Below are positions 806 to 51,061 of a stretch of DNA of 52,167 nucleotides, piece by piece (the first letter of the stretch is position 1; every line of letters starts with the position of its first letter). Source of the stretch: a virus (Duplodnaviria; Caudoviricetes); IMG/VR virus record IMGVR_UViG_3300015245_000043, positions 1-52,167 of that record. The stretch is one strand, 5' to 3'. The translations under genes were made by a program, and so were the position numbers. Below the pieces are notes generated by a model. It saw only the letters and a program-made list of their open reading frames with translations, was not told the origin of the DNA and made no database searches.

Positions 806-1264
806 TCAAAATCCGAACTGATCTTGAGTTACGTTGGCGGGTTTTTTTCGTGGTGCGTCTTTCTTCTGATCCGTAAGGGTGTTGCGCTCCCAGAAAACCT
901 TGTCGTGATAGCCTTGAATTGAATTATCGCGCTCCACTAATGCAAGACGCTTTTCTGCGAGACAGCAATAAGTCTCGTCAATCTCTACTCCAACAAACTT
1001 TCGATTAAGCTTCTTGGCGACCACGGAGGTTGTACCAGAACCAAGGAAAGGATCAAAGACGACATCCCCAGCATTTGAACTCGCGAGCATTAGCTTGGCG
1101 ATTAGCTTCTCTGGCTTCTGTGTAGGATGGTCTGTGTTTTCCGGCATTGACCAAAACGGTACTGTAATGTCAGTCCATAGGTTCGAAGGATGGGTGAACC
1201 GAAAGTCTCCATTTTCAGTCCGTGCCCAGTCCTTTGGTTTTCCGTCTTCGCGGGTGTATGGTGC
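806..1264 (-). pseudogene. C-terminal half of an N6/N4 DNA methyltransferase (beta class), 5' end missing
   Basis: HPTQKPEKL and DPFLGSGTT (SAM-binding motif I) present; the catalytic DPPY half is absent; similarity appears to stop at APY (about 1264), where phage-like sequence begins. Confidence 0.85.
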
Positions 1265-1307
1265 GCCGTCGACACTGTCCCTACACTTCCAACCAAGGGG
1301 TATCCCA

Positions 1308-1943
1308 ATGTCAAAAGGCTGGATCACTTTCGAGTTTGAGACGACGCCGGGCGCTGTCCCGACGCCGCCGATCTACTACCCGCCGCCGGGTCAGCCGGCG
1401 CACCCCATCGCGCCTGGCGGCCCGCCGCCCGAAGTGTGGCCGCCGCAGCCGCCGGTCGGCATCTGGCCGTCGCCGCCGGTCTATCCGTCACAGGGGTTGC
1501 CGATCGCGCCGGGTCATCCGTCACATCCCATCGTGATCCCGCCTGGCGGCATCGTCATGCCGCCCATCGTGATCGATGGCAAGCCGACGCCGCCGATCTA
1601 CTATCCGCCGCAGGTGTGGCCGTCGCCGCGTCCAATTCCGGGGCACCCGATTGTGCTGCCGCCGGACGTGAAGCCGCCGGTCATGTGGCCGCCGTCGCCG
1701 CCGGACGTGGCGACACCGCCCATCGTGATCCCGCCCGGCGGTATCGTCATGCCGCCGATCTACAACGACGGCGTCGTGACACCGCCGATCTACTACCCGC
1801 CGGTCGTCGATAACACCTTGCCGGCGCCGCCAGGACAGCCGCTCGTGCCGGGAATGCCGTTGCCGCCGTCGGCTCAGCCGAAGCCGACACCGCCAGCGGG
1901 CGCGCCGCCTGCGAGCGGTGCCAAGCCGGTGCCGGGTCACTGA
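1308..1943 (+). CDS. Proline-rich repeat protein (PxHPI/TPPIYYPP repeats), variant 1
   Basis: ATG at 1308 after AAGGGG; 211 aa with repeated HPIVIPP/PPIYYPP; homologous to 51578-52123. Confidence 0.8.
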   Translation: MSKGWITFEFETTPGAVPTPPIYYPPPGQPAHPIAPGGPPPEVWPPQPPVGIWPSPPVYPSQGLPIAPGHPSHPIVIPPGGIVMPPIVIDGKPTPPIYYPPQVWPSPRPIPGHPIVLPPDVKPPVMWPPSPPDVATPPIVIPPGGIVMPPIYNDGVVTPPIYYPPVVDNTLPAPPGQPLVPGMPLPPSAQPKPTPPAGAPPASGAKPVPGH

Positions 1944-1948
1944 CACAA

Positions 1949-2131
1949 ATGAGGGTCGTCATCATCCTGATGGCGGCCCTCTTGTCGGCGTGCGCGTCGA
2001 GCAGCCCGCCCAACGCCATCGGCGCCATCATGTCGCCGCTCTGCGTGTTCAATTGCGTCACGGTCATCCACTACGCCAACGGCGTCGAGACGATGACCGA
2101 AAGTCCGCGCATTACGAAGGTGAACCACTAG
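1949..2131 (+). CDS. Small lipoprotein
   Basis: Hydrophobic signal with LSAC lipobox; PLCVFNC..HY motif shared with 51327-51494. Confidence 0.65.
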   Translation: MRVVIILMAALLSACASSSPPNAIGAIMSPLCVFNCVTVIHYANGVETMTESPRITKVNH

Positions 2132-2151
2132 CGGCTGCTCTCGCTGCTCTC
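2128..2151. repeat. 24-bp exact direct repeat of the window end (52144-52167)
   Basis: CTAGCGGCTGCTCTCGCTGCTCTC at both positions. Confidence 0.95.
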
Positions 2152-2355
2152 CTGATGCCCGACGCCGCCGACGAGCGGCCCATGAAACTCGACGACCAGC
2201 GCGTCGTTGATCTTCAACCGAACAGCCTTATGATAGAACGCGGAGCCGCCGGTTTCGTGGCGCGTCTCCTTCCATAGCTTCGCCTGCTCCTCCAGGTTTT
2301 TGTAGTCCTCGTAGGACAGGTGCATGTAGATGACGGCGGGCTTGCTCATCTTCAT
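2128..2355 (-). CDS. Hypothetical phage protein
   Basis: 75-aa ORF with GGAG RBS, packed at the end of the replication operon. Confidence 0.7.
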   Translation of the reverse strand: MKMSKPAVIYMHLSYEDYKNLEEQAKLWKETRHETGGSAFYHKAVRLKINDALVVEFHGPLVGGVGHQESSESSR

Positions 2356-2361
2356 CTCCCT

Positions 2362-2691
2362 CTAGGACAATGGTCCACGTTGCCATACCGTGATTGGCGA
2401 ACAGTGCAATGTATCGCGTGACGATGGGACTGGCAGTCGCGGCGCCTTCTTGATCAATCCTTCTTTTGCGAGCTTGGCAAAAATTGGCCCCATCGCTCTC
2501 TCATCATGCGTCCACACATGGGGGTAGCGAACGTGCATCAGGGCGCGAACGTCGTCAGCCGTGAATTCACATTTGTCGCGCACTACTAGCCTCGCACAGT
2601 GATCCGCCGCCGCCATCCATGCCGGGTCAGCATGTCGTTTAACCCGATCCATTCCCTCTTTTTTAAGAGCCTCGCCGTCCTCGCGGCTCAT
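2362..2691 (-). CDS. Hypothetical phage protein, possibly winged-helix (FTADDV motif)
   Basis: ATG overlaps the polymerase stop codon; lower GC than neighbours. Confidence 0.7.
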   Translation of the reverse strand: MSREDGEALKKEGMDRVKRHADPAWMAAADHCARLVVRDKCEFTADDVRALMHVRYPHVWTHDERAMGPIFAKLAKEGLIKKAPRLPVPSSRDTLHCSPITVWQRGPLS

Positions 2692-4697
2692 TTGCGATAC
2701 CTCGGCCCCGACCAGCCCGCGACCTTCAACGGGCAGTCGCCGATCCACTCCGGCGTCACGTTCAAGAGCGCGATGAATTCGGTGAGCGACTTGTCGCCCA
2801 TGATCAGATCGCCATCGCCGACTTCGGAGACGATCTCATCATGGACGTGCAGCACAACCGGATAGCCGGCGGCCTCGACGCGCAGAATGCCGGCGGCCAG
2901 GACATCGCGCGCGAGTGCCTGCGTCGCGTTCTCCGTCAGCTTTCCGCCGTAGGTGTACATGCGACACCATTGGTAGGTGATCGGGTTCACTCCGGTGAAC
3001 GTGATCTGCTCGCGCTCGTAGGGACCGTCATCGCCCTCGACGACGACGGTCTCGATCTTCGGATGCAGGTAGGCGAGGAAGCGGCCCGACGGCAGCTTCA
3101 TGTAGAGGACGCTGCCCTTGACGCCGAAGCGCAGGCCGCTGCGATGCTGGTAGACCGTGCCGGGGTTCTCGATGGCGTTCTTGGCCGCCTCATCCATCGC
3201 GCGCCATAGCTCCGTGATCTCCGGGTTGGTCGCGCGGTAGGTCTCGATGGCAAGCTGCGCGTCGTAGTCGTCGATGACGACGCCTTCCTTGGCGATCCGG
3301 TTTTGCAGGTTGCGCCAGCCGCATTGGTAGCCGCAGGAGAGGACCAGGGTCTTGCCCAGGAAGCGCTCGCCGTCGTCGATGTCGGCGACCGCCTTGTGGT
3401 AGACGTGCGACGCCATGACCTTGTAGGGATCGCTGCCGGTCCTGAACAGGTGCAGGACGATCTTGGCGCTCGCCAGCCAGGCCAGAATGCGCGCCTCGAT
3501 CGCGTTCCAGTCGGCGACCAGCAGCTTCTTGCCGCGCGCCGCGATGACGCAGCCGCGCAGCAGCGACGCGATCAGGTCGAGCGGCGGCCCATGCAGCGCC
3601 TCGATGCCGGTGAGGTCGAGCGTGCGGTCGGCCGCCTTCACATCCTCGACCGTCGCTTCGAGGTCGGCCGGCAGCAGATGCCCGCGCGGGAAATTATGAG
3701 GTTGCAGGAGATGCCCGGCCCATCGGCCGGTCTGGCGGGCGCCGTAGTAGCGCAGCACGCCTCTGATGCGGCCGTCGCGGTTGCTGGCGCGCTGCATCAC
3801 CGCCAGCTTGGCCGTCGACGACTTGCTGGCCTCCTGACGGATCGTCAGCACGGCGCGGACGGCGTCGGTCAGGTCGTCGCGTTTCAGCAGCCGCACCAGC
3901 GTGTACTTGTCGATGCTGTCGAGATCGTCATCGAGGTCGGCGTGCAGCGCCAGCCATTTGAGCAGGTCGTTGCGCTTGCGCGTGTTGGCAACCATGCCTT
4001 TCGTCAGTTCGCGAACGTCGTGATCGAGCCTGGCCGCCGCCTTGCCGACGACGGTCAGCGCGGCATGTACCAGGTCGTGATCGAGCAGCATGCCGCGCTC
4101 GTTGATCTTCTGATCGATCAGGTAGATGGCGCGCTCCTCGTCTGGCATCGGCCGCAGCCGCGATCCGATGGCGCGCTCCGTCGCGATGTCCTGCATGCAG
4201 TAATCGCCAAGCCGTAGCTGCATCGTCTCGTCATCCCACCAGATGACGGAGCCGTCGACGTTGACCAGGCGCGGCCGGCACATCTTCAACATCAGCTTGC
4301 GGCCATCCATGTCCTTCCGCATGTTGATGCCGAGAGCTTCGGCCGCCTTGTCGAGCGCTGCCGGCAAGCCCTGCGTCAGCGCTTGCGCCTGCGTACACCA
4401 GGTCTGCTCGACCGGCAGCGGCGGCCAGCCCTGGCGGTACGTCAGGATGCCGTTCCAGACGATCCGCTCGAAGGCCGCGTTCCAGGCGCGGAACATCCCG
4501 CCGGCCCGCGCATGCTCCTGTAGCTCCTTGGGAAGCGTCTGGCCTCGACGCCACAGGGAAATAGGGCCGAAGTCGAAGGCCCAGGCCATGCACCAGACAT
4601 CGGTCGTCGGATGCTCGACGTACTTGTAGACGCCGACTTTCGGAAGATCGACCTGGCTGCGGGTCTCGAAATCGATCGAGCAGATCGGCGCGGTCAT
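2688..4697 (-). CDS. Phage family A DNA polymerase with 3'-5' exonuclease domain
   Basis: Exo I DFET, Exo II WNAAFER, Exo III YCMQD; motif A DWNAIEAR, motif B RFLGKTLVLSCGY, motif C VHDEIV. Confidence 0.95.
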   Translation of the reverse strand: MTAPICSIDFETRSQVDLPKVGVYKYVEHPTTDVWCMAWAFDFGPISLWRRGQTLPKELQEHARAGGMFRAWNAAFERIVWNGILTYRQGWPPLPVEQTWCTQAQALTQGLPAALDKAAEALGINMRKDMDGRKLMLKMCRPRLVNVDGSVIWWDDETMQLRLGDYCMQDIATERAIGSRLRPMPDEERAIYLIDQKINERGMLLDHDLVHAALTVVGKAAARLDHDVRELTKGMVANTRKRNDLLKWLALHADLDDDLDSIDKYTLVRLLKRDDLTDAVRAVLTIRQEASKSSTAKLAVMQRASNRDGRIRGVLRYYGARQTGRWAGHLLQPHNFPRGHLLPADLEATVEDVKAADRTLDLTGIEALHGPPLDLIASLLRGCVIAARGKKLLVADWNAIEARILAWLASAKIVLHLFRTGSDPYKVMASHVYHKAVADIDDGERFLGKTLVLSCGYQCGWRNLQNRIAKEGVVIDDYDAQLAIETYRATNPEITELWRAMDEAAKNAIENPGTVYQHRSGLRFGVKGSVLYMKLPSGRFLAYLHPKIETVVVEGDDGPYEREQITFTGVNPITYQWCRMYTYGGKLTENATQALARDVLAAGILRVEAAGYPVVLHVHDEIVSEVGDGDLIMGDKSLTEFIALLNVTPEWIGDCPLKVAGWSGPRYRK

Positions 4698-17500: not shown

Positions 17501-20500
17501 CTCAGCGGCGCCTCGAATTCGCCCGCGATCTTGTCGATGTTGGCGGCGATCTTCGGTTCGGTTCGGAAGCCAGCGGCCAGGCCGACGAGCTTGTCACCAT
17601 CGTAGAACGCGAACACGCTCCCGTCCTTGTCGGCCTTGACATCGAGACCGTGCTGGTTGACGGCATAGTCATAGAATTTAGCGTTCATCGCGACGACCTT
17701 GTCGCCGACCTTGCCGTACACGGTCGTCAGCTTCTCGCTAACCTGGTGCGCGAAGATGGGCTTGAATTCCTTGGTCGCCGCCTTCCGGCTCTTGTCCATG
17801 AATTCGCGCATCTGCTCTGCGTTGCGCGCGGCTTCCTTGATCGGCAGCTTCGACTTGCCCCACGCCTCGTCGTAGGCGGGATCGAAGCCCTTGCGCCAGA
17901 TCATGTTGCCAGTGCCTTGCCAGTCGCCCGCGCGCACGCGCTGATCGCCGACTTCGATCATGTCGCGCGGCGACGCTTTGTCGATGTCCTCGACGGCATG
18001 GTAACCCTCGCGCAGCGTCGGCGGCTCAGGGTAGCCGGTCTTTTTCAGATGCTCGTAGACGGCGATCTCGATCCTGGCCTTGCGCGCCTTCTCCATCATG
18101 GCGTGACGCTGTTGGTTCATGCCCTGACCCTTGGTCTGCTCCAGGGCATGTTCGGCGCCGGCGATCTCCTCCCGCGCTCGACCGATCATCTCGTCGAAGT
18201 GCTTATCGGTGTACTTGGTCTCGCGGTTCCAATAGGCGTCGACCAGGTTGCGATATTTCTCGCGCGCCTCATTGAGGTCGAGACCCTTCACGCCCTCGAA
18301 AGGCGGTCGATCCGCTTCCGGCGCTGGCTCGACGCGCTCGCCTAGATCAGTCTGCGGCTCTGACACAGGCTCCTCGACGGGCGCCTTGGCCTTCCGCGCA
18401 CGCGCCGGCTTCTTCGGTGCCGGCGTCGGTTGTGTTTCTACCGCCGGTCCCTGAGCTTCCGGTTGTGGCGCTGGCTCTGGCGCTGCCTCAGTCGCAACCT
18501 CTGGCGCAGGTTGCTCCGTTGCTCGCGCCTGTGCAACCGGCTCCTCGACCGGCGTTACTCGCTCCTGTGCAGCCGGCTCCGGCGCCGCAGCGGGACGATG
18601 CTCCGGCGCCGGCTCCGCTGCCGGTTCCGGCTGCGGCGCAGTTCTCGCCGCCGGTCCCGGTGCCTCCTTGATCGCCAGGGGCGCCAGGGGCGCCTCCTGG
18701 CGTGCCTGCGGCCTCTCTGGCGGTGGCTCAGGCCCGCCGGGCGGTGCTTGCCCCTCTCCCCCTGGCGGCGGCTCCTGCGGCCCGCCAGGCGCCTCGCCGG
18801 CCGGCGGCTCCTCGTAGCGCGTGAATTCGCGAGCGGAGAACCCTTCGCCCCTTGGATGATTGACGATCTCGAAGCGCTGGTCGGTCGCCTGCTGCGCCCG
18901 CACGATCCAACGCGCCGCCTGCTTCTGGTCGCCGAAGATGATCGGCCCGCCGCCGGTCGAAAGGACATAGCCATCGGGATCGGTGTGATACCGACCGTCC
19001 TGGTCCGGCGGCTGCGGTGTGTTGGTCGAGCGCTTCCCCTCGTAGCGCTGCCGCGCCCGCGCCTGTGCCTGCTCCTGCTCGCTGCGGCGGTACTGTGTGC
19101 GCTCGCGCTGCGACCGCGCCCTTTCCTCAGCCTGGCGCCGCATCTCCTCGTGGAAGCGGCGCATGACATCCTCGAAGGTCGGACGCGGCCGACCAGGGTG
19201 AGGACCGCCCGGCTGTTCGGGAAACGGCGCACGGCCGACGTGCGGCGGCTCGCCGACATCGGGCGGCGTCATCCGGTAGGTCTGGCGCTGCTCGCGGCCG
19301 ACACCCTCGCCTGGCATGCGCGCCGTCTCCGGCGGACGCGGCCCGCGCACGCGCTGCTGTACGTCCTGTGCCAGGCGCGGCTCCTTGGCGTAGCTCGTCG
19401 TCGAAAGGTTCCGCATCGGCACAACGTAGTCGATCGATCCCTCGACATCGCGGCCGGTCCTGGGATCGTAGCGCCGCACGACCGCATTCTTGCCTTGCTG
19501 CCGGACCACGCGAACCGGGAAGCCCTGGTCGAGGATCACGCGCTCCGGCGAAGCACCCATCGTGCGCCCGGCCGGTGACACGTCGACGGCGCCCGGCGTC
19601 TCGACCGCTCGCGCCCGCTGCCGCTCAGCAAGCGCGAAGGCACCGCCGGCTTCTCTCTGCCCCTGAATATCCGTCGGCGTCATTGGCTGGCGTGCTGCCG
19701 GTGCCGTCAGCCGCGCCGCTCCGGCCTCGATCGCGGGCGCGCCCTGCCCCTCCTCGGCGCGCATGCCGGCGCCGCCTTCGGCTCCCATCGCCCGCGCCTG
19801 GTGCGCGATCTCCTCCGGCGTCAGCCTGGTCGGCTGCGGCTCGATCACCGCCGACAGGTTGTACTTGCCGCTGCGAAGCTCCGTCGCCAGCGGCAGGCGC
19901 TCCTCGGCAGCGTAGCGCTCCGGCGTGATCACACCAGGCAGCGGCTCGCGCGCACGCGGCAGGTTGGCCGCGCCGGGCGCGATCTCGCCTTCTGCGACGC
20001 CAGTGATCTCGCGCCGCAGCGTCTCGACTTCGGCCTCTTGCTGACGCCCCTGCTTCGCCGCCGGCCCGCGCCGCTGCTCCGGCGGAACCGGCGCGCCCCC
20101 TTCGACCGGCGGCTGCTCTGTCATTGACAACCGCTCTTGCGTCGCCGCCGCCTGTCTCGCCTTCTCGACCGGATCGGCTTCGGCGGCCCGCCGCGTCTCC
20201 AGTCGCTTGGTCAGCACGTCGACCTGCTGCGGCGTCAATTGATCGGCGTGCGCGTCGATGAACGCCTGCACGTCGGGAGAGCGCGCGAATTCCGCCTGCT
20301 CCTCCGGCGTGATAGTCGAGACATCGATCGCCTCCGGCCGCACGCCGCGCTTGCGCGACAACCAATTCTTCGCGATCCCGATGAAGCGCCCGGCGATCGG
20401 CAACGCACCGCCGCCGACGGCGCTGGTGACGCCGGCCATAAGCGTCTGCGTCGGATCGTATTCCTTCCGCGCGCCGGTCGAGACCTGCGACCGCTGCACG

Positions 20501-37673: not shown

Positions 37674-37861
37674 GTGTCGACCCCCCGTCGGCTTGCGGCT
37701 ATAGCACCATCTCGACACAAAGGGAAGTAGCGCGCCCCGTCGGGTAGGTGTAGCTTTCTGGCGGGACGCTTCGGTTGAGGCGTCGGCGACAACCTGTCGG
37801 CACACCCGACGGGTCGGCGCAGACCGGGCGGAGCGTCCCACCTGACCTGGAGATTGCGACC

Positions 37862-38599: not shown

Positions 38600-38964
38600 G
38601 ACGCTACGACCACGAGCCGAAGCCAGGTGCCTACGGCGTCTGCGAGCGCTGCGGCGATCCGGCGACGCACCCCGGCCCGTTTGAGCAGGCGAAGCCCGAA
38701 GATCGTCTCGGCGATGCCCCGGTGCAGGCCGACTACCAGAAAATGATGACCGCCATCATGCAAGGCATCGACGAGCTTCTAAATCCCGACAAGGAGACCA
38801 AGGGCCGCGCGACCGGCATCCTGATCATGATGTTCCCCTACGGCGACCACAGCGGGCGCTGCAATTATATGAGCAACGGCGCCGACCGGCGCGGTGTCGT
38901 GATCCTGATGAAAGAGATGATCGCGCGCTTCGAGGGTCAGCCGGACGTGACGGGACGCGCGTGA
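38596..38964 (+). CDS. Conserved phage hypothetical protein
   Basis: MFPYG..GRCNYMSNGADR motif; GGAG RBS. Confidence 0.7.
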   Translation: MRRYDHEPKPGAYGVCERCGDPATHPGPFEQAKPEDRLGDAPVQADYQKMMTAIMQGIDELLNPDKETKGRATGILIMMFPYGDHSGRCNYMSNGADRRGVVILMKEMIARFEGQPDVTGRA

Positions 38965-42257: not shown

Positions 42258-42797
42258 TTAGCTCAGCGGATCGGGCGCTAGTGTCCGCTCCCATGCCTCT
42301 AGTCTGGCCTGACCGACGGCGGCAAGGCGCTCTAGCTCGCTCCTCGACATCTCTGCTAGTGCCTTGCCGGGTTGCGGCGCGCCAGGCGCGAACGCTCCCG
42401 CTTCTGGTGTCCCGGTGAGGTAGTAGCCGGCAAGCTCAGCAGCAAACCGCGTCGCCTGCACCAATTCGCGGAGCTTAGCATCGGGCCGCGCCATTTCCTC
42501 ACGAATGCGGAACAGCCCGAAGGGAACAAGCTGCGCCGCAGCGTAGGCGCGCTGTAGCTCGATGACGGCGGCAGCGAAGATCGGTTCCCGCAGCCATCGC
42601 CTGACGGTCTCGACATCGAGCGCCAGGCGCCGCGCGATCTGCGAAGCCCACAACCCATGATAGACCATCAGTTCAACCGCCCCTAGCTGTGCGTCCGTCA
42701 GGCGGTCGAGCGCTCGCAAGTCGCCAGCACCAGGCCCAACCCCGCGCCGGTTCGCCGCAGCCACTCGCCGCAGCGCCAGCCCTGTGTGATCCGTCAT
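42258..42797 (-). CDS. Putative terminase small subunit (HTH)
   Basis: LTDAQ..IARRL..ETVRRWLREP HTH and C-terminal LAEMSRSELE; GGAGGAGG RBS. Confidence 0.6.
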   Translation of the reverse strand: MTDHTGLALRRVAAANRRGVGPGAGDLRALDRLTDAQLGAVELMVYHGLWASQIARRLALDVETVRRWLREPIFAAAVIELQRAYAAAQLVPFGLFRIREEMARPDAKLRELVQATRFAAELAGYYLTGTPEAGAFAPGAPQPGKALAEMSRSELERLAAVGQARLEAWERTLAPDPLS

Positions 42798-43068
42798 CGC
42801 CGGTCCCTCCTCCGCACTGGCTTACTGCCGGCCGCAGGTCGACTGCAAGCGTTCTCGTCTGTTCTAGGGGTGTGACACTTCGGAGCAAAACTAGTTCCCC
42901 TATGAGAGCGCTATATACTCCGCCGCCGCCGCCAAGCCAGCATCAGGTCAGCACCAGATCAGACACAGATAGTAGCCCTACACGGGATTGGTTTAGCAAA
43001 CACTGTCACACCCCTTTTCGAGGTTTTCTGCCGTTTTCTTGCTTCCACACTACTGAGTAAATCCGTTG

Positions 43069-43098
43069 TTGATTTCTTATTACTCACTCGTGTAAGGT
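43069..43098 (+). promoter_or_regulatory. Putative sigma70-type early promoter
   Basis: TTGATT-18-TAAGGT in an AT-rich gap upstream of the early gene block. Confidence 0.5.
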
Positions 43099-43152
43099 GT
43101 CGGTTGCCCGTCGACACGGCGGGCGACACTTAACCGACAGGAGATTGCGACC

Positions 43153-43320
43153 ATGTCCAAGAAGGATTTCCAGCTAATCGCCGAGACGCTGCGCGCTCGC
43201 GGCGCTCAGCACCCCATCGCCGTCGCGACCATCGCTCGCGACTTCGCCGACGCTCTCAGGGCGACTAACAGCCGCTTTGACCGCGCCCGCTTCCTTGCTG
43301 CCTGCGGCGTGTCGGAGTAG
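43153..43320 (+). CDS. Conserved small early phage protein, 55 aa (absent from the ORF track)
   Basis: MSKKDFQLIAETL...FADALRATNSRFDRARFLAACG; AGGAG RBS. Confidence 0.8.
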   Translation: MSKKDFQLIAETLRARGAQHPIAVATIARDFADALRATNSRFDRARFLAACGVSE

Positions 43321-43325
43321 GGCCG

Positions 43326-43460
43326 ATGAACTACGCCGCTCAGCTACTCGTGGCCGTCGCCTTGACCTTCATCGCGACCGCCTGCATCAGCGCTCCCGCT
43401 GCCATCGTGCAGACCGTGACCGCTGCCATTGAGGAGGTCGCACCCCATGCGTCACGGTAA
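43326..43460 (+). CDS. Small hydrophobic protein, 44 aa
   Basis: MNYAAQLLVAVALTFIATAC; fills the gap between neighbours. Confidence 0.45.
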   Translation: MNYAAQLLVAVALTFIATACISAPAAIVQTVTAAIEEVAPHASR

Positions 43461-43713
43461 CGCCCTGATGATCTCCGACGGCGCCAGCAATCCTGCTGGC
43501 GTCGCGCGGGCGCTGGTCGACGCGATCGACGAATGCAGGAAGGAGACACCTTACCGCGATCCGCGCGGCGATCCTGCCGTGATGCTGATCACGCACCAGC
43601 TAGCGTTCCTGCTCAGCCTGCCAACCTGCGAACGGCTCGACGATTGGGATACCTGGCGCAAGCTCTGCCGGGCGCATGTCGACGCCGCAACGGCCGGGAG
43701 GGTTGCAGCATGA
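43447..43713 (+). CDS. Hypothetical early protein
   Basis: GAGGAGG RBS; GASNPAGVA..DPAV.LI..QLAFL. Confidence 0.7.
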   Translation: MRHGNALMISDGASNPAGVARALVDAIDECRKETPYRDPRGDPAVMLITHQLAFLLSLPTCERLDDWDTWRKLCRAHVDAATAGRVAA

Positions 43714-43976
43714 CGACACCAGACGAGTATTGGCGCCGGCCCTATCGGGCGCGCGTCGAGACTTCGCACTTTAGCGGCACCTTCACTTTCGACAACGAAG
43801 CCGACGCCGTCGACTACCTGCACCAGCAATTCGCCCGCGTGCGCCGGATCATTCGCAACGGCGAGTACGGGACATCCTGGGTTAACTTCGACTGCTACCG
43901 CTCCTACATCGAAGGCCCGGCCGGGCGCGTCGCCGCTCGCTACGTGCTGTTCGTCGACAAGCTCGAAAGCCATTGA
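43710..43976 (+). CDS. Hypothetical early protein
   Basis: GGAGGG RBS; ATGA-coupled. Confidence 0.65.
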   Translation: MTTPDEYWRRPYRARVETSHFSGTFTFDNEADAVDYLHQQFARVRRIIRNGEYGTSWVNFDCYRSYIEGPAGRVAARYVLFVDKLESH

Positions 43977-43977
43977 A

Positions 43978-44043
43978 GGTCGAAACGGGGTGTTAGCTCT
44001 GCTAACATCCTGTCGCGGCGTGACGCGCCGCCTGATGATGACC
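43978..44043 (+). ncRNA. Type II hammerhead ribozyme 1 (predicted cleavage after GUC, 44014)
   Basis: GGTC-GAAAC-[GGGGTGTTAGC tct GCTAACATCCT]-GTC-[GCGGCG tgacg CGCCGC]-CTGATGA-t-GACC: complete catalytic core and three stems. Confidence 0.88.
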
Positions 44044-44064
44044 ACACCAAGGAGATTGCGACCA

Positions 44065-44418
44065 ATGGCAACGACACGTACTGACCGCCGGACCTATGCC
44101 GGCACTGACTTTCGCGGCTGGTTCCGCCGCAAGCTCAAAGACAGCGCGGGAGACATCGCCCGGCATGGCGCCGACGCGGGCTATCCTCACATCACCTACA
44201 CCAGCGACACCGTGAAAATCTTCGATCGCTTCGGCGCCGAGATTTGGACGATGGCAGTCGAGGACGCGGAAAGCATGGGATGCAAGAACGTCGCCGAGAT
44301 GATCGCCGGCTTCGGCCGCGCCGACATGCTCGCGGACTTCGACCAATTCAAGAACCTGATGGTGTGGTACGCCTGCGAGAAGGTCGCACACGAGATGGAG
44401 GACGGCGACAATGCCTGA
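44065..44418 (+). CDS. Early protein, possibly Ocr-like
   Basis: DIARHGADAGYPHITYTSDT...FKNLMVWYACE; acidic C-terminus; AGGAG RBS. Confidence 0.7.
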   Translation: MATTRTDRRTYAGTDFRGWFRRKLKDSAGDIARHGADAGYPHITYTSDTVKIFDRFGAEIWTMAVEDAESMGCKNVAEMIAGFGRADMLADFDQFKNLMVWYACEKVAHEMEDGDNA

Positions 44419-44839
44419 ATTCATTCTCGACACTGGCAACGAAGCGGGAGCGGCGGCGTTCGCCGCTCTCGACGAATTCACGCGCGGCTATGTGACCTGC
44501 ATGTTCTTTACTTCGACAGGATCGGGCGACGATGACGATCTAGAGCATGCGACACTGGCAGAGCTAGCGCCGGAGACCTGGACACGGATCGAGACCGATT
44601 GCGCGGCGTTCCAGTTCATCGCGCCACACATGCTGACGATGGCATGCGAGCGCGACGGCTACAACGCCGGTCGCGCTGGTCATGACTTCTGGCTGACGCG
44701 CAACGGACACGGCGCCGGCTTTTGGGATCGTGACGAGCTAGAGGCGAGCGACCTGGGCGACAAACTCTCGACCATCGCCCGCCGCTTCGGCTCCTGCGAC
44801 CTGTATCGCGGCGATGATAACAACCTGTACCTGGCATAG
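44411..44839 (+). CDS. Conserved acidic early phage protein
   Basis: AGHDFWLTRNGHGAGFWDR motif; GGAGG RBS. Confidence 0.8.
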   Translation: MPEFILDTGNEAGAAAFAALDEFTRGYVTCMFFTSTGSGDDDDLEHATLAELAPETWTRIETDCAAFQFIAPHMLTMACERDGYNAGRAGHDFWLTRNGHGAGFWDRDELEASDLGDKLSTIARRFGSCDLYRGDDNNLYLA

Positions 44840-44851
44840 GAGATTGCGACC

Positions 44852-45313
44852 ATGACTGACGTTCAACAATACACGCACTACGACGCGCCGACGCGGGCGC
44901 AGACCGTGACGATACAATGGGAGCGCGTCGAGGCGCGCGACGATAGCGGCGACACCCCGGAGGAGCGTGACGAAGGCTTCTGGCCGTCCCTCGACAAGGA
45001 CAAGGCTGGCTATGTCGGGGAGGAGAATGCGGCCCGCTTCGATGAACTTTGCGAGGCGGCCGACGCGCGCTTCAAGGGTTGGCGCGATGGCGACTGGTAC
45101 TTTATCGGCGTCGCCGCGCGGGCGCATATCAGCATCCCCATCGGCAGCGGATCGTTCCGCACCATCACTATCGATAGCGGCGGCTTGTGGGGGATCGAGA
45201 GCGACGCAGGCGACTACCTCGACGAGGTATTCGAGGAGGAGAAGGCCAGCCTGCTCGCTGAGCTTGCCACGCTTGGCAAGTGGGCGGCTGAGCAGAAAGG
45301 AGAAGTGACGTGA
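44852..45313 (+). CDS. Conserved acidic early phage protein
   Basis: W.DGDWYFIGV..GLWGIESD motif; AGGAG RBS. Confidence 0.8.
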   Translation: MTDVQQYTHYDAPTRAQTVTIQWERVEARDDSGDTPEERDEGFWPSLDKDKAGYVGEENAARFDELCEAADARFKGWRDGDWYFIGVAARAHISIPIGSGSFRTITIDSGGLWGIESDAGDYLDEVFEEEKASLLAELATLGKWAAEQKGEVT

Positions 45314-45564
45314 ATAAGGAGCGACGCGAGCGCCTGCGGAAGGCGATGGCTGCGATCAACGAAGCGCTGGCGGGACAGATCGAGGAGGTCACCGCCGTCG
45401 CCGACGAGGAGCAGGAGGCATTCGACGGCATGCCCGAAGGTCTACAGGCCGGCGAGAAGGGTCAGAAGATGGAGGAGGTCGCGACGCAGCTACGCGACGC
45501 TGCGGAGGCTCTAGAGCAGGCCCGCGACGATCTTGACACGGCGGTCACGGAGGCATGCGAATGA
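45310..45564 (+). CDS. Conserved acidic helical phage protein
   Basis: MNKERR..EEQEAFDGMPEGLQAGEKG motif. Confidence 0.8.
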   Translation: MNKERRERLRKAMAAINEALAGQIEEVTAVADEEQEAFDGMPEGLQAGEKGQKMEEVATQLRDAAEALEQARDDLDTAVTEACE

Positions 45565-45674
45565 GCGGCCACTTCAACGGCATGCGGAAGATCGACCGCC
45601 CGCTCTACACCTGGGCGCGCGTGATCGCCGTCGCCCTCGGCTTCCTTCTGATCTACTGGCTGACGAGCAGATAG
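45561..45674 (+). CDS. Small single-pass membrane protein, 37 aa (absent from the ORF track)
   Basis: MSGHFNGMRKIDRPLYTWARVIAVALGFLLIYWLTSR; GGAGG RBS, ATGA-coupled. Confidence 0.6.
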   Translation: MSGHFNGMRKIDRPLYTWARVIAVALGFLLIYWLTSR

Positions 45675-45732
45675 GTCGAAACGCGCGCCAGGAGGTCGCG
45701 CGTAGCACCGTGATGCGGTGCCTGACGAGACC
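45674..45732 (+). ncRNA. Type II hammerhead ribozyme 2 (predicted cleavage after GUA, 45704)
   Basis: GGTC-GAAAC-[GCGCG..CGCGC]-GTA-[GCACCG tgatg CGGTGC]-CTGACGA-GACC: complete core and three stems. Confidence 0.88.
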
Positions 45733-45768
45733 GGCGAGCGAGAGCGAGCCAGACCAGGGAGACCGACG

Positions 45769-46179
45769 ATGGTAGTGCAGCGACGCGATTGGAAGGACAT
45801 CCTAACGGATCGTCGACGCCATCAGAAGCCAACGGAGCCGACGGTCATGATCCCGCGCTGCCGCTGGTGCAAGCGGAAGCTAGAGCGGGCGACGGTCTAC
45901 ATCCACATCGCGCCGGAGTGGCAGGCGACGGACACGGTCGCGACGGTTCGCTACATGGAGCGGATCAAGGCTGGCGAGGTCGTCAGCTTCGATCGCGGCT
46001 ACTACCCTGGTCAATCGATCCATACGCCAGCGAGCGAGCGCCCGATTGTCGGGGTCAGAGTATGGGACGGCAAGAGCTACAGAGGGAAGCCGGCGCGCCT
46101 GCCGATATTCTGCAAGCCGGCCTGCGGCGTCGAATTCGCGCTCGACGCGCACCAGCATGGACATAGAAGGAGAAGCTAG
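45769..46179 (+). CDS. Zinc-finger hypothetical protein
   Basis: CRWC...FCKPAC; GGGAG RBS. Confidence 0.65.
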   Translation: MVVQRRDWKDILTDRRRHQKPTEPTVMIPRCRWCKRKLERATVYIHIAPEWQATDTVATVRYMERIKAGEVVSFDRGYYPGQSIHTPASERPIVGVRVWDGKSYRGKPARLPIFCKPACGVEFALDAHQHGHRRRS

Positions 46180-46440
46180 ATGCCGAAGCTAAGGAACGTG
46201 ACGGCTCACGAAATCGCTGAGGCCGTCAATGCCGCCGAAGATGTCAGCGCGATCTGCACTGGCATCGTCGGGCGCGTGCAGCAAGGCTATTGCGACGAGG
46301 TCGACGAGCCGGTCACGGTCGCGTCGTCGCTGCTATCGGCCAGCCGGTCGCTGGCTGACCTGGCGCACGCGATGCTGATCAAGGGACGGCTGCAAGAGCA
46401 GAAGGCGACGCTAGAGCGCACGCTGCGGAGCAGATCATGA
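46180..46440 (+). CDS. Hypothetical protein
   Basis: AGGAG RBS, 86 aa. Confidence 0.6.
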   Translation: MPKLRNVTAHEIAEAVNAAEDVSAICTGIVGRVQQGYCDEVDEPVTVASSLLSASRSLADLAHAMLIKGRLQEQKATLERTLRSRS

Positions 46441-46622
46441 AATGGTCCTGGTCCTGCGGCCACGAAGCGAGCGAGTGCTGCGCCGAATGCCATCGCCTGC
46501 TTTCGGTCAAATCGACGACGATGGTCGAGATCATCGACGACCTGATCGACGACCTGCGGCGACGCGGGCTTAACGAGAAGGCCGACGCCATCGGTCGCAA
46601 GCTGAATGAGGCACTACGATGA
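46437..46622 (+). CDS. Hypothetical Cys-rich protein
   Basis: ATGA-coupled; CGH..CCAEC. Confidence 0.55.
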   Translation: MKWSWSCGHEASECCAECHRLLSVKSTTMVEIIDDLIDDLRRRGLNEKADAIGRKLNEALR

Positions 46623-46852
46623 AACCCGCCGAATTCACGACGCTAGGGACCGCCGCCTTCGGCGAGCGCTGGCGTACCGCCCTGGCCGGCGCCATCGGCA
46701 AGTCGCGCGAGATGGTCTATCAGTACGAGCGCGGCAAGTACCCGATCCCCGACGATGTCGCCGTCAATATCCGCAAGGTCTGCGCCAAGCGGATCGAGAA
46801 GCGGATCGCGGACCTACAGGCGACGCTCCTGCGCTGCGAGCTTGCGGCCTGA
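46619..46852 (+). CDS. HTH DNA-binding protein
   Basis: FGERWRTALAGAIGKSREMVYQYERGKYPIP. Confidence 0.75.
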   Translation: MKPAEFTTLGTAAFGERWRTALAGAIGKSREMVYQYERGKYPIPDDVAVNIRKVCAKRIEKRIADLQATLLRCELAA

Positions 46853-46873
46853 ATTCCCTACCTGCTGCATAGA

Positions 46874-49111
46874 CTAATCGTCGTCGTCGCCTGCCTCGCC
46901 GGCCGGGTCGAGATAGGTGACGCCGATGCCTCTCTCGACCTTGTCGTCGCGCAGCCATAGGCCGCGCACGCGATGCCGGTACTTCCCTGTCCTGTAGGTC
47001 TGGAACCCCATCTGCTCCATCACGGCGCGGAAGCGGCCGATGCTATGGATGTAGCGGGTGTCGCCGAAGTGGATCGCGTGATAGGAGCGGAAGGCGCTGT
47101 AGAAGTCGTTGACCGTGTCGCCGTTGGCGGCGCCCTCCTTCGGAGCGACGCGCGTGCAGGCGGCTTCGATGAATTCGATCTCCGGCGCGTTGCTGCTGAT
47201 CCAGATCGCCTGCGCGTCGACGCCGGCTCTCGACGGCAGGATGTAGCTGCGGCTGATGACGCCGGAAAGTGCTGAAAGCATGCGGTTTAAGATCCCGCTC
47301 ATCTCTTTTCGATCTGACCAGATCGACGGCCAGGGCGAGTGCTGGCGCTCCTCTCGCTTGTATTGCCGGCGGAATTCCATCACCAGCGCGCGGTCGCGCG
47401 TTCCCTCGCTGAGGTCGGCGGTCGACGGCCAGGAGTTACAGAGGATCACAGGGAAGGTGCAGCAATTGAAGTTCACGTCGTTGACGTACTTCTTGGCGGC
47501 GTTGATCTGCTTGGCCTCGCTGATCATCTTCAAGGGACCGTCGGGTAGCACCGCCTGATAGTTCATGTCGTCGTCGAGAAAGAGCAGCTTGCCCTCTAGC
47601 TCCGAGAGCGCGAAGCGGTCGGTTTTCAGGTTCTCGATCCGGCCGGCTTGCACCGTGCCGGGCGGTAGCATCGCGCGCACGGTCATCAGCAGCCGCGTCT
47701 TGCCGTTGTGGCCGCTGCCCTTGCAGATCAGGTAGCAGCGCGCGTCGCGCCAGGGTGTCAGCGCGTAGCCCATCGCTTCGAGCAGCATGCGCTCGTTGTC
47801 GGCCTGGTCGTAGACGTGCAGCATGCGGCCCGGTCCCTGCCGGACGCTGGTGTCGCCGTTGACGAGCCGCTGCGCGGTCGCGGCGTAGTCGTCATCGCCA
47901 GCGCGCACGATGTAGTAGGTCTCGCTGAGGACATCGGCGAAGGCGGCGTCGAAACGCGGGCAGACGCTTCGCGGATCGTAGTCGACATCGCAGCAGTAGG
48001 TGAGCAGGTCATCGGGATCGTGCGGCTTGAAGATGATGCCGCCATCGGCGGTCGAGATCAGGATCGTGCCGTTGGCGAGATTGAGGATCGGGCGCAGCGC
48101 CATCTCCGGCCGCAGCAGCGGTGAGAGCCGGTCGTGTACTTCGGCTTCGAGCAAGCCCATCGCTTGCGTGACGGCGGTGTTCACGTTCTGCGGCCTGGCG
48201 TCGCCGATGCTCATCATCAGCGCCGGTTGATCGAGCGCGACGTGCTGCATGTCCTTCTTGATCAGGTTGGCGTCGATCCGGTCCCAGGCTTTGCCGCCGT
48301 AGCGCCACCAGGCGGCGTTGTGGAAGGCGAGCTTGCCGAGACCGTAGAGACCGCGCACGGCATCGGCCAGGCGGCGCGGGACATCGTAGGTCCGGTCCAT
48401 GTCGCGCCGTAGCTGCTCGAATGTCATCTGCTTGCGGAGGGTTTTCAGGCTGATCCCGGTCGCGCCCTTGATCCGGTGCAGGAGATCGTCGACCTGGACA
48501 GGCGTCAGGCTGGCGTCGACGATGGCGGTGATCGCCGTCGCGCAGTCGTCGACCGTGCTGTCGGCCGCCAGCAGATCGACGGCGCCGCCGATCTCGACGT
48601 AGCCTGGCGCCGTCGGCGCGACTAGCTCGACCGGCGGCGGGTTGACTTCTACGTCAACCTCGTCGTCGTGATCGAAGTCGAGGTCGTAGATCAGCGTGCA
48701 GCGCCCGCCGCTCTCCTCCCAGGCTTGCTGCGCCAGCCAGCGAAAGCCGACGTGACAGTGAGCCGGATCGATCCCCTGCCATAGCCTGTCGGCGGTCTCG
48801 ACCGCCTTCGGGTCGCTGCTCCATTGGCCGCACCAATCGAGCCAGGCGGCATAACCCTCGCCGCTCTTGGCGGTCGCGGCAACGATGGCATGGCCCATCG
48901 TCACCCAATACTCGCGCGAGCGCGGATCGTTCGGCCGGATCGGCAGGTAGCGCAGCGCCTCGACGACGGCGTCAATCGAGGAAGCGAGGAGATCGCCGGA
49001 CGGCGGCGCGTGACCGTTCGCCTTGGTCGGCTTGCGCGGGCGCTGTAGCGGGACGTAGTCGATCGCGCGGAGCGCGGCGGCGATCCTACCAGTGATCGGC
49101 GAGTTGCTCAT
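46874..49111 (-). CDS. PriCT-2 / D5_N / SF3 helicase part of a P4-family primase
   Basis: REYWVTMGHA (PriCT-2), LNLANG..PHDPDDLLT (D5_N), Walker A GSGHNGKT, Walker B LFLDDD. Confidence 0.9.
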   Translation of the reverse strand: MSNSPITGRIAAALRAIDYVPLQRPRKPTKANGHAPPSGDLLASSIDAVVEALRYLPIRPNDPRSREYWVTMGHAIVAATAKSGEGYAAWLDWCGQWSSDPKAVETADRLWQGIDPAHCHVGFRWLAQQAWEESGGRCTLIYDLDFDHDDEVDVEVNPPPVELVAPTAPGYVEIGGAVDLLAADSTVDDCATAITAIVDASLTPVQVDDLLHRIKGATGISLKTLRKQMTFEQLRRDMDRTYDVPRRLADAVRGLYGLGKLAFHNAAWWRYGGKAWDRIDANLIKKDMQHVALDQPALMMSIGDARPQNVNTAVTQAMGLLEAEVHDRLSPLLRPEMALRPILNLANGTILISTADGGIIFKPHDPDDLLTYCCDVDYDPRSVCPRFDAAFADVLSETYYIVRAGDDDYAATAQRLVNGDTSVRQGPGRMLHVYDQADNERMLLEAMGYALTPWRDARCYLICKGSGHNGKTRLLMTVRAMLPPGTVQAGRIENLKTDRFALSELEGKLLFLDDDMNYQAVLPDGPLKMISEAKQINAAKKYVNDVNFNCCTFPVILCNSWPSTADLSEGTRDRALVMEFRRQYKREERQHSPWPSIWSDRKEMSGILNRMLSALSGVISRSYILPSRAGVDAQAIWISSNAPEIEFIEAACTRVAPKEGAANGDTVNDFYSAFRSYHAIHFGDTRYIHSIGRFRAVMEQMGFQTYRTGKYRHRVRGLWLRDDKVERGIGVTYLDPAGEAGDDDD

Positions 49112-49748: not shown

Positions 49749-49805
49749 GACATACCTCGTCGTTGGTCACCTGACACTTCCTGGTCGCAATCTCGGAATA
49801 GTCAG

Positions 49806-50500: not shown

Positions 50501-51061
50501 TCAGGAATGCTCAACGCCTAACTTCTGGTAGTAACGCCGTTGCTTGTCAAGTTTTCGCAGCGCCGTCTCCGCTCGATTGGCCTTCCGTTGCCAGGCGGTG
50601 ATCCGCTCTAGCACCTGACTGTAGCGATCCTGCCGTAGCTGATCGGCGGTCGCCTTCATCTTCGGCTCGCGTTTCAGCTTGCCGTCGAGCCAACCGGACT
50701 TGACGACATAGTCGATCATCTCGCGCTCTAGGAACGCATGCCGCCCCATGCTGTCGTGCGCCTTCTCGTTAGGGTGAAGGCGCCAATGGCAATGGTGCGA
50801 GACGCTGTGAACGATGCAGCGCCAGCCCTCGTCGGGGTTGACGACGCCGCGATAGATCGACGTGCGACGCCGGCCCGACGTGATCCGCAGCGGTGTCTTG
50901 CGCCGCAGCGGTCGCTTCATGGCGAAGCGGTAGAGCAGCTTGACGGCGGTGATCGCCTCGTCGCCATCGAGCTTAGGCAGAGGTCCGTTCGGCCAGGAGC
51001 CGTTGACCGACGCATAGCGTCGCTCGCCGGCCCGTTGTTGGGTCGCAATCTCCATAGTCAT
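50501..51061 (-). CDS. Hypothetical protein with His cluster and C-terminal coiled coil
   Basis: IVHSVSHHCH..H..H; GGAG RBS. Confidence 0.7.
   Translation of the reverse strand: MTMEIATQQRAGERRYASVNGSWPNGPLPKLDGDEAITAVKLLYRFAMKRPLRRKTPLRITSGRRRTSIYRGVVNPDEGWRCIVHSVSHHCHWRLHPNEKAHDSMGRHAFLEREMIDYVVKSGWLDGKLKREPKMKATADQLRQDRYSQVLERITAWQRKANRAETALRKLDKQRRYYQKLGVEHS

Follow-up and report, generated by a model that had tools for sequence, protein, structure and literature searches.

The window, that is, the whole stretch of DNA that was analysed, is a complete virus record of 52,167 bases with 64% G+C and belongs to an uncultured tailed phage. Pfam and PHROG scans reveal genes for a large terminase, a major head protein, a family A DNA polymerase, an SNF2 helicase, a primase, and an integrase. 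The nearest terminases among named phages are those of a Microcystis phage (48.6% identity) and a Rhizobium phage (41.9%). A DNA search of phage records for close relatives returned 17 records with a query coverage of 6% or less, and a search of viral_contigs for relatives of the protein encoded at 45769-46179 found none. No close phage relative having been found, there is no orthologous copy in which conservation at 45674-45732, the site of interest, could be tested.

The site lies in a run of small plus-strand genes that extends from about 43153 to 46852 and whose stops and starts overlap or abut. The interval 42700-47000 holds no terminator-like site on the plus strand; two such sites were found there, with 2.0 expected, and both are on the minus strand. 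From the overlapping or abutting genes and the lack of a plus-strand terminator-like site, we infer that the run is a single transcription unit. An AT-richer, gene-free stretch at 42840-43150 separates a region of minus-strand ORFs from the first early gene of the plus strand. The promoter of the operon with the two ribozymes described below is likely to lie in this stretch; a scan of 42700-47000 for sigma-70-like promoters returned 0 sites, and so gave none there.

A 13-base word composed of a ribosome-binding site (RBS) and a spacer recurs in the phage: on the plus strand at 37849-37861, 43140-43152, 44051-44063, and 44839-44851, and on the minus strand at 51041-51053 and 49783-49795. There are 5 exact copies and 1 with a single mismatch, against 0.18 expected, and 6 copies were reached in 0 of 100 shuffles. 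On the plus strand, ATG follows the word directly in three cases and A-ATG in one, the gene just 3' of ribozyme 1. The last four bases of the word, GACC, are also those of a stem II strand of the ribozymes. The word may represent a shared site, for translation initiation or for the binding of a regulator.

A 94-nt gap between two genes of the run holds a hammerhead ribozyme, here termed ribozyme 2, on the strand of all neighbouring genes (+). Table 1 collects its parts and surroundings, together with those of a second hammerhead, ribozyme 1, farther upstream.

Table 1. Coordinates of the two ribozymes, of the parts of ribozyme 2, and of the neighbouring genes
Feature	Position	Strand	Remark
Ribozyme 1, type II hammerhead	43978..44043	+	GUC cut site after C44014; 12-bp stem III; loop I UGACG
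Five-gene segment of 1690 nt between the two predicted cut sites	44015..45704	+	Genes 44065-45674; putatively released by double cleavage
phrog_4068 family gene	45310..45564	+	E 1.7e-21
Upstream 39-aa ORF, small hydrophobic protein	45555..45674	+	TAG shares one base with ribozyme 2; GC3 0.90
A immediately 5' of stem II	45673	+	Position conserved in the subclass
Ribozyme 2, complete type II hammerhead, 59 nt	45674..45732	+	
Stem II 5' strand GGUC (11.4-11.1)	45674..45677	+	G45674 doubles as the final base of the TAG stop
Core GAAA (G12 A13 A14 A15.1)	45678..45681	+	
Stem III hairpin	45682..45702	+	C45682-G45702, GCGCG/CGCGC, bulged U45696, CC/GG, loop AGGA
U16.1 and A17	45703..45704	+	Predicted scissile bond A45704/G45705, from position in the core alignment
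Stem I hairpin, 17 nt	45705..45721	+	GCACCG 45705-45710 / CGGUGC 45716-45721, loop UGAUG
Core CUGACGA (C3-A9)	45722..45728	+	
Stem II 3' strand GACC (10.1-10.4)	45729..45732	+	
RBS GGGAG and ATG 45769 of the downstream gene	45756..45771	+	
Downstream gene, 136 aa	45769-46179	+	No family

A type II hammerhead with a GUA triplet had been proposed at 45674-45732 in a first-pass annotation made from the letters of the DNA, and every element that it listed is present, base for base. The GUA triplet occupies 45702-45704, and stem III joins GCGCG (45683-45687) to CGCGC (45697-45701) between the flanking pairs C45682-G45702 and A45681-U45703. The invariant hammerhead core is intact: CUGACGA at 45722-45728, GAAA at 45678-45681, the pair A45681-U45703, and A45704 as the H at position 17. 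The pairs adjacent to the core are standard (G45729-C45677 as 10.1-11.1 and G45705-C45721 as 1.1-2.1). The order of the parts (GGUC, GAAA, hairpin III, GUA, hairpin I, CUGACGA, GACC) is that of type II topology. The same annotation placed the start of the ribozyme on the last base of the upstream stop codon, and indeed G45674 is the last base of the TAG of ORF 45555-45674. From the predicted cut site to ATG 45769, a 5' UTR of 64 nt would remain (45705-45768). Another CUGACGA at 45660-45666 precedes the GAAA at 45678; we regard this as chance, as no stem II hairpin is possible between the two and the stretch lies inside the 39-aa ORF. The pattern was counted 3 times, with 2.05 expected.

A strict descriptor covering all three hammerhead topologies has 45674-45732 as its sole match in the window; ribozyme 1 escapes it because of an extra U after A9. 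In 300 dinucleotide-preserving shuffles of the window, any match arose in 3 and a match with stems as strong and as long arose in 0. On its own, the 59-mer has the three-way junction as both its minimum-energy and its centroid structure (-29.2 kcal/mol, z -2.85), and 2 of 200 shuffled sequences fold as well. In a 115-nt context, GGUC of ribozyme 2 pairs in the minimum-energy fold with a later GACC (45752-45755) and not within stem II, and the centroid structure contains stems I and III only, without stem II. Further plus-strand copies of GACC lie 3' of the ribozyme at 45752-45755 and 45761-45764, one of them between the RBS and the ATG. Given a stem II of 4 bp and this alternative pairing, the active fold may compete with other folds.

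Ribozyme 1 shares with ribozyme 2 an identical GGUC/GACC stem II and differs from it by one extra U between CUGAUGA (A9) and GACC. Such a U is common in accepted members: it is present in all ten type II ribozymes found beside relatives of the phrog_4068 gene (see below). The setting of ribozyme 1 is of the same kind, just after a stop codon (TGA 43974-43976) and 21 nt before an RBS, with an ATG at 44065, and its fold has a z of -4.72. That the stems of the two ribozymes differ while pairing is kept had been put forward as an argument for selection on structure. The comparison bears this out: both sides have changed in 2 of the 6 pairs of stem I and in 3 of the 7 of stem III, thus in five pairs, and a sixth has changed on one side. 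Every differing pair is still a standard pair, and the covariation argument therefore holds.

Over the window, Rfam at its gathering thresholds gives no match. At permissive thresholds, the model RF02276 (Hammerhead_II) aligns with ribozyme 2 over its full length of 1-66 and scores 22.5 bits, short of the 37 bits set for gathering; a search space of 401 bases gives an E-value of 0.028, and that of the whole window one of 3.7. At ribozyme 1, the Rfam hammerhead models have no match at E<=10. A weak Rfam match at 38856-38911 (10.6 bits) was rejected, being inside a coding region and without a GAAA element. Ribozyme 2 loses score against Hammerhead_II where the model calls for some 10 nt in loop I, a stem II that is very short, and conservation in the 3' tail, all of them parts of a pseudoknot between loop I and the tail in the published consensus (PMC3088659), where the pseudoknot is described as having at least 4 bp in the majority of consensus type II members, not in all (Perreault et al. 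2011, PMC3088659). At ribozyme 2, a search for a 4-nt complement of loop I, G-U pairs allowed, found none over 25 nt of the 3' tail and 24 nt of the 5' flank. As it falls short of the gathering score and lacks the pseudoknot, ribozyme 2 is filed outside the narrower Rfam definition. It is a hammerhead of type II topology that belongs to a pseudoknot-free subclass under-scored by Rfam.

This subclass was collected with a pattern that fixed only the core and the GGUC/GACC stem II. The pattern occurs in at least 125 viral stretches and in at least 120 stretches of bacterial and archaeal genomes from many phyla, against a chance expectation, by rough arithmetic, of the order of ten matches. The viral loci yielded 131 distinct pattern matches among the matches listed, and the 127 with clean stems form alignment A1. 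Within A1, 99.0% of the cells of the hammerhead pairing are standard pairs, a percentage that is partly built in, given that only matches with clean stems (127 of 131) entered the alignment and that the search pattern fixed stem II; sliding the 3' partner lowers it to 30-45%. Changes on both sides of a pair number 551 cells against 182 in shuffles, a value reached by 0 of 500 shuffles, and they occur in 9 of 11 variable pairs. The covariation score is 0.705 against 0.130 in shuffles, and again none of the 500 shuffles attains it.

A covariance model built from A1, termed R1, contains 127 viral sequences and none from the window, and it was run over the whole window with filters off. Ribozyme 2 scores 58.3 bits (E 5.6e-10), ribozyme 1 scores 46.8 bits (E 1.2e-7), and the third-best site 12.2 bits. 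The first-pass annotation had named an Infernal scan among the checks on its hammerhead; the Rfam model under-scores the site, and R1, an independent model, recognises it. On 461 kb of unrelated phage DNA, R1 returned 4 matches at E<=0.01, all at hammerheads. When loci from prokaryote genomes were searched jointly, ribozyme 2 ranked 56 of 80, a set with 78 members from prokaryote genomes and a range of 29.8-65.1 bits; its score is in keeping with those members. A relaxed descriptor that allowed one core mismatch and one stem mismatch proposed further candidates at 19194, 10688, 11329, and 2233; these were rejected as long, weak, and within or across coding regions, and none of them scored with R1.

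Under-scoring by Rfam is a property of the whole GGUC/GACC subclass. The 26 siblings of ribozyme 2 present as GGUC/GACC members in the 15 pattern loci that were scanned were compared with Hammerhead_II: 0 of 26 reach 37 bits, and 3 are listed at E<=0.1, with 30.9-33.7 bits. Two pseudoknot-type neighbours, in the loci L020 and L022, pass the cut-off with 41.0 and 43.5 bits. Because no sibling reaches the cut-off although the subclass is common, routine annotation can be expected to miss most of its members.

As defined in this analysis by model R1, the subclass is marked by a stem II of 4 bp preceded by A and by a stem I of 6 bp with a 5-nt U-N-A-N-G loop. Ribozyme 2 has all of these, with A45673, the loop UGAUG, and a significant R1 score. 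Among the matches listed, the stem I region is 17 nt long in 118 of 127 members; within these 118, loop I has U at position 1 in 117, A at position 3 in 87, and G at position 5 in 96, and UGAUG is its commonest form (11/118). The base before stem II is A in 126/127 of the matches listed. The search pattern imposes neither this A nor the length of the stem I region nor the three loop I bases. Still among the matches listed, the stop triplet overlaps the ribozyme by one base in 28/127, as it does at ribozyme 2, and an RBS-like motif with a start lies within 60 nt in 101/127. In most subclass members among the matches listed, the 5' strand of stem II is at a stop triplet or no more than about 4 nt from it. 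A 4-nt complement of loop I is present in the tail of 15/127 members among the matches listed, which does not amount to a general pseudoknot. In its loop I, its stem lengths, the A before stem II, the stop overlap, and the RBS with start, ribozyme 2 is typical of the subclass. Among the matches listed, its only minority states are the GUA cut site, seen in 13 of the 127 viral members (GUC in 112, GUU in 2), and the G after stem II, seen in 22 of 127 (A in 96).

Two further features of the collected sequences deserve mention. In 11 of the 127 members among the matches listed, the five bases directly 3' of stem II form a perfect reverse complement to CUGAN of the core. These tails track N7, with 9 having A opposite U and 2 having G opposite C, and they could form a core-masking hairpin; both ribozymes of the window lack such a tail. 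A viral contig, L106, carries eight type II hammerheads on its plus strand within about 3 kb (about 950-3600), spaced 252-651 nt apart. They amount to roughly one per small gene and have several different stem II sequences.

The gene at 45310-45564 offered a second view of how such ribozymes are placed. Its phrog_4068 relatives were compared from 79 viral loci. The descriptor found hammerheads beside the relative in 12 of the 79, and R1 added the loci L034 and L041, for 14 of 79. Of the 12 found by the descriptor, ten have type II hammerheads, L033 has three type I copies, and L052 has one of type III; the ribozymes of L020 and L022 that pass the Rfam cut-off, mentioned above, belong to this set. 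In several loci the ribozyme starts 13 nt past the end of the protein match, and in others, and in the window too, a small ORF lies between the two. In L020, 2321-2596 (+) is a strong match to RAGATH-8 RNA, with 275.7 bits where the cut-off is 86.7. About 400 nt separate this match from the phrog_4068 homologue downstream, which is followed in turn by a type II hammerhead. In L033, the three type I hammerheads at 2060-3005 (+) are arranged with one before and two after the homologue (match 2134-2367), and their score with the Rfam HH9 model is 34.8 bits, below the cut-off of 52.

Hammerheads as a class, their type II topology, and their clustering between phage genes are all in print (PMC3088659), and 45674-45732 is a real addition to a kind known in phages since 2011. 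In the prophage clusters described there, hammerheads flank genes or short gene blocks, and the role proposed is the processing of long phage transcripts (PMC3088659). The same account reports that, of the prophage arrays, three cleaved in vitro and one in vivo, and the active arrays it names are in Agrobacterium tumefaciens, Azorhizobium caulinodans, and Clostridium scindens (PMC3088659). In Desulfovibrio vulgaris, three type II hammerheads near phage-like genes are described as cleaving in vivo (PMC8782182).

Ribozyme 2 has the same invariant core as the type II hammerheads of bacteria and prophages (RF02276; Perreault et al. 2011, PMC3088659). It also has the same loop-capped stems I and III with an open stem II, and the same intergenic place on the coding strand of a phage gene array (PMC3088659). 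As in the clusters of that account, there are several copies in one operon, flanking single genes or short blocks; here two ribozymes bracket a five-gene block, and the same processing role is proposed (PMC3088659). The A. tumefaciens, A. caulinodans, C. scindens, and D. vulgaris loci are similar in having multiple ribozymes within a few kb beside hypothetical or phage-like genes, and their cleavage ends are given as 2',3'-cyclic phosphate and 5'-OH (PMC3088659, PMC8782182). The genes that those active arrays flank, as described, differ from the ones here. Unlike RF02276 and the type II ribozymes of Perreault and colleagues, ribozyme 2 is without the pseudoknot of loop I and 3' tail. Unlike the Rfam consensus, it has a stem II of 4 bp where that consensus is very short and a loop I of 5 nt where it has about 10 nt, and its GUA cut site departs from the majority GUC.

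An engineered counterpart is found in synthetic biology. RiboJ-type insulators were engineered from a plant satellite-RNA hammerhead and are placed between promoter and RBS. Upstream of the RBS, such a hammerhead cuts off the upstream RNA and leaves a defined 5' UTR that starts with a hairpin. By analogy, ribozyme 2 may be likened to these insulators in function only.

The reaction catalysed by the hammerhead core, in which the 2'-OH of residue 17 attacks the phosphate next to it, forms a 2',3'-cyclic phosphate and a 5'-OH. On this basis, we read 45674-45732 as a type II hammerhead ribozyme in the early plus-strand operon that cleaves after A45704 and so divides the transcript, and we give this reading a probability of about 0.8. 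Judged from the sequence, ribozyme 2 is predicted to cleave itself in vivo, and its purpose is predicted to be operon processing. After transcription of the 59 nt, the hairpins of stems I and III would form, and pairing of the outer GGUC with GACC would complete stem II and enclose the conserved core. A45704 would then use its 2'-OH to attack its own 3' phosphate. Of the two products, the upstream one would finish with the stem III hairpin and a 2',3'-cyclic phosphate, and the downstream one would open directly with the stem I hairpin, bearing a 5'-OH, 64 nt ahead of ATG 45769. That both product ends would be capped by hairpins follows from the type II topology. These hairpins would protect both new ends, which would suit a device for making stable sub-operon messages. 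Together, cuts after 44014 and 45704 would split the early transcript into three RNAs of 4, 5, and 4 genes, and the translation and decay of the three pieces would thereby be uncoupled.

Three other explanations have to be weighed against this reading. Ribozyme 2 might be a slow or dead relic: derived from a hammerhead, deprived of a stabilising tertiary contact, and now serving through its hairpins as passive intergenic structure, for example as exonuclease barriers. Several results lean this way, namely the missing pseudoknot between loop I and 3' tail, the loss of the 4-bp stem II from the centroid fold in the longer context, and the Rfam score below the cut-off. The tested type II ribozyme of PMC3088659 needed this pseudoknot for fast cleavage at 0.5 mM Mg2+, and its disruption slowed that ribozyme by 20-fold to more than 100-fold (PMC3088659). 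However, all core positions of ribozyme 2 match the consensus, where a dead relic would be free to drift, and the whole pseudoknot-free subclass has kept its core intact, over at least 125 stretches from viruses and at least 120 from genomes. The same account puts the share of natural hammerheads without the pseudoknot at about 60% (PMC3088659). Moreover, the subclass has conserved non-helical positions of its own, the A at -1 (126/127) and U1 of loop I (117/118) among the matches listed, and on the strength of these positions a different tertiary contact presumably replaces the pseudoknot. We therefore consider a relic unlikely.

A further proposal accepts that cleavage occurs and concerns the fate of the product. 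As both ribozymes use the same stem II strands, the 1690-nt five-gene piece (44015-45704) could close into a circle through a hybrid hammerhead, with ligation by reversal of cleavage or by a host ligase. Ends with 5'-OH and 2',3'-cyclic phosphate are substrates of RtcB-type ligases. With the shared GGUC/GACC and the self-contained hairpins of stems I and III, the hybrid would formally be a complete type II hammerhead. Circular or spliced products are named as a possibility for the prophage arrays, but are reported there as not detected (PMC3088659). In addition, neighbouring ribozymes elsewhere often differ in stem II (for example, in L106, L103, and L138), and common descent explains a shared stem II as easily. 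We hold a circle to be highly improbable; if it did form, double cleavage would yield a circular five-gene phage mRNA. A milder idea, likewise of low probability, builds on the position of the stem II 5' strand at or near a stop triplet in most subclass members: a terminating ribosome would gate the folding of the ribozyme, and hairpin-capped, long-lived messages would result from the cut. Finally, a chance resemblance, in which GC-rich intergenic DNA happens to hold two unrelated hairpins, would accord with the Rfam E-value of 3.7 at whole-window level but is negligible in view of a motif equalled in strength by 0/300 shuffles, the E of 5.6e-10 with R1 as an independent family model, and the second copy 1.7 kb upstream on the same strand and in the same kind of gap.

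The reading of 45674-45732 as a ribozyme that divides the early transcript bears on a wider question, for the biological role of phage hammerheads has been called elusive (PMC13725137). Our search of the literature on their function found nothing beyond the processing hypothesis of 2011, and this locus adds one example, not an answer. It does belong to a very common pseudoknot-free subclass of phage type II hammerheads that falls under the Rfam cut-off and most of whose members routine annotation would miss. For the phage itself, the early plus-strand operon probably yields three separately processed messages, and the genes on either side of 45704/45705 could differ in lifetime and in rate of translation.
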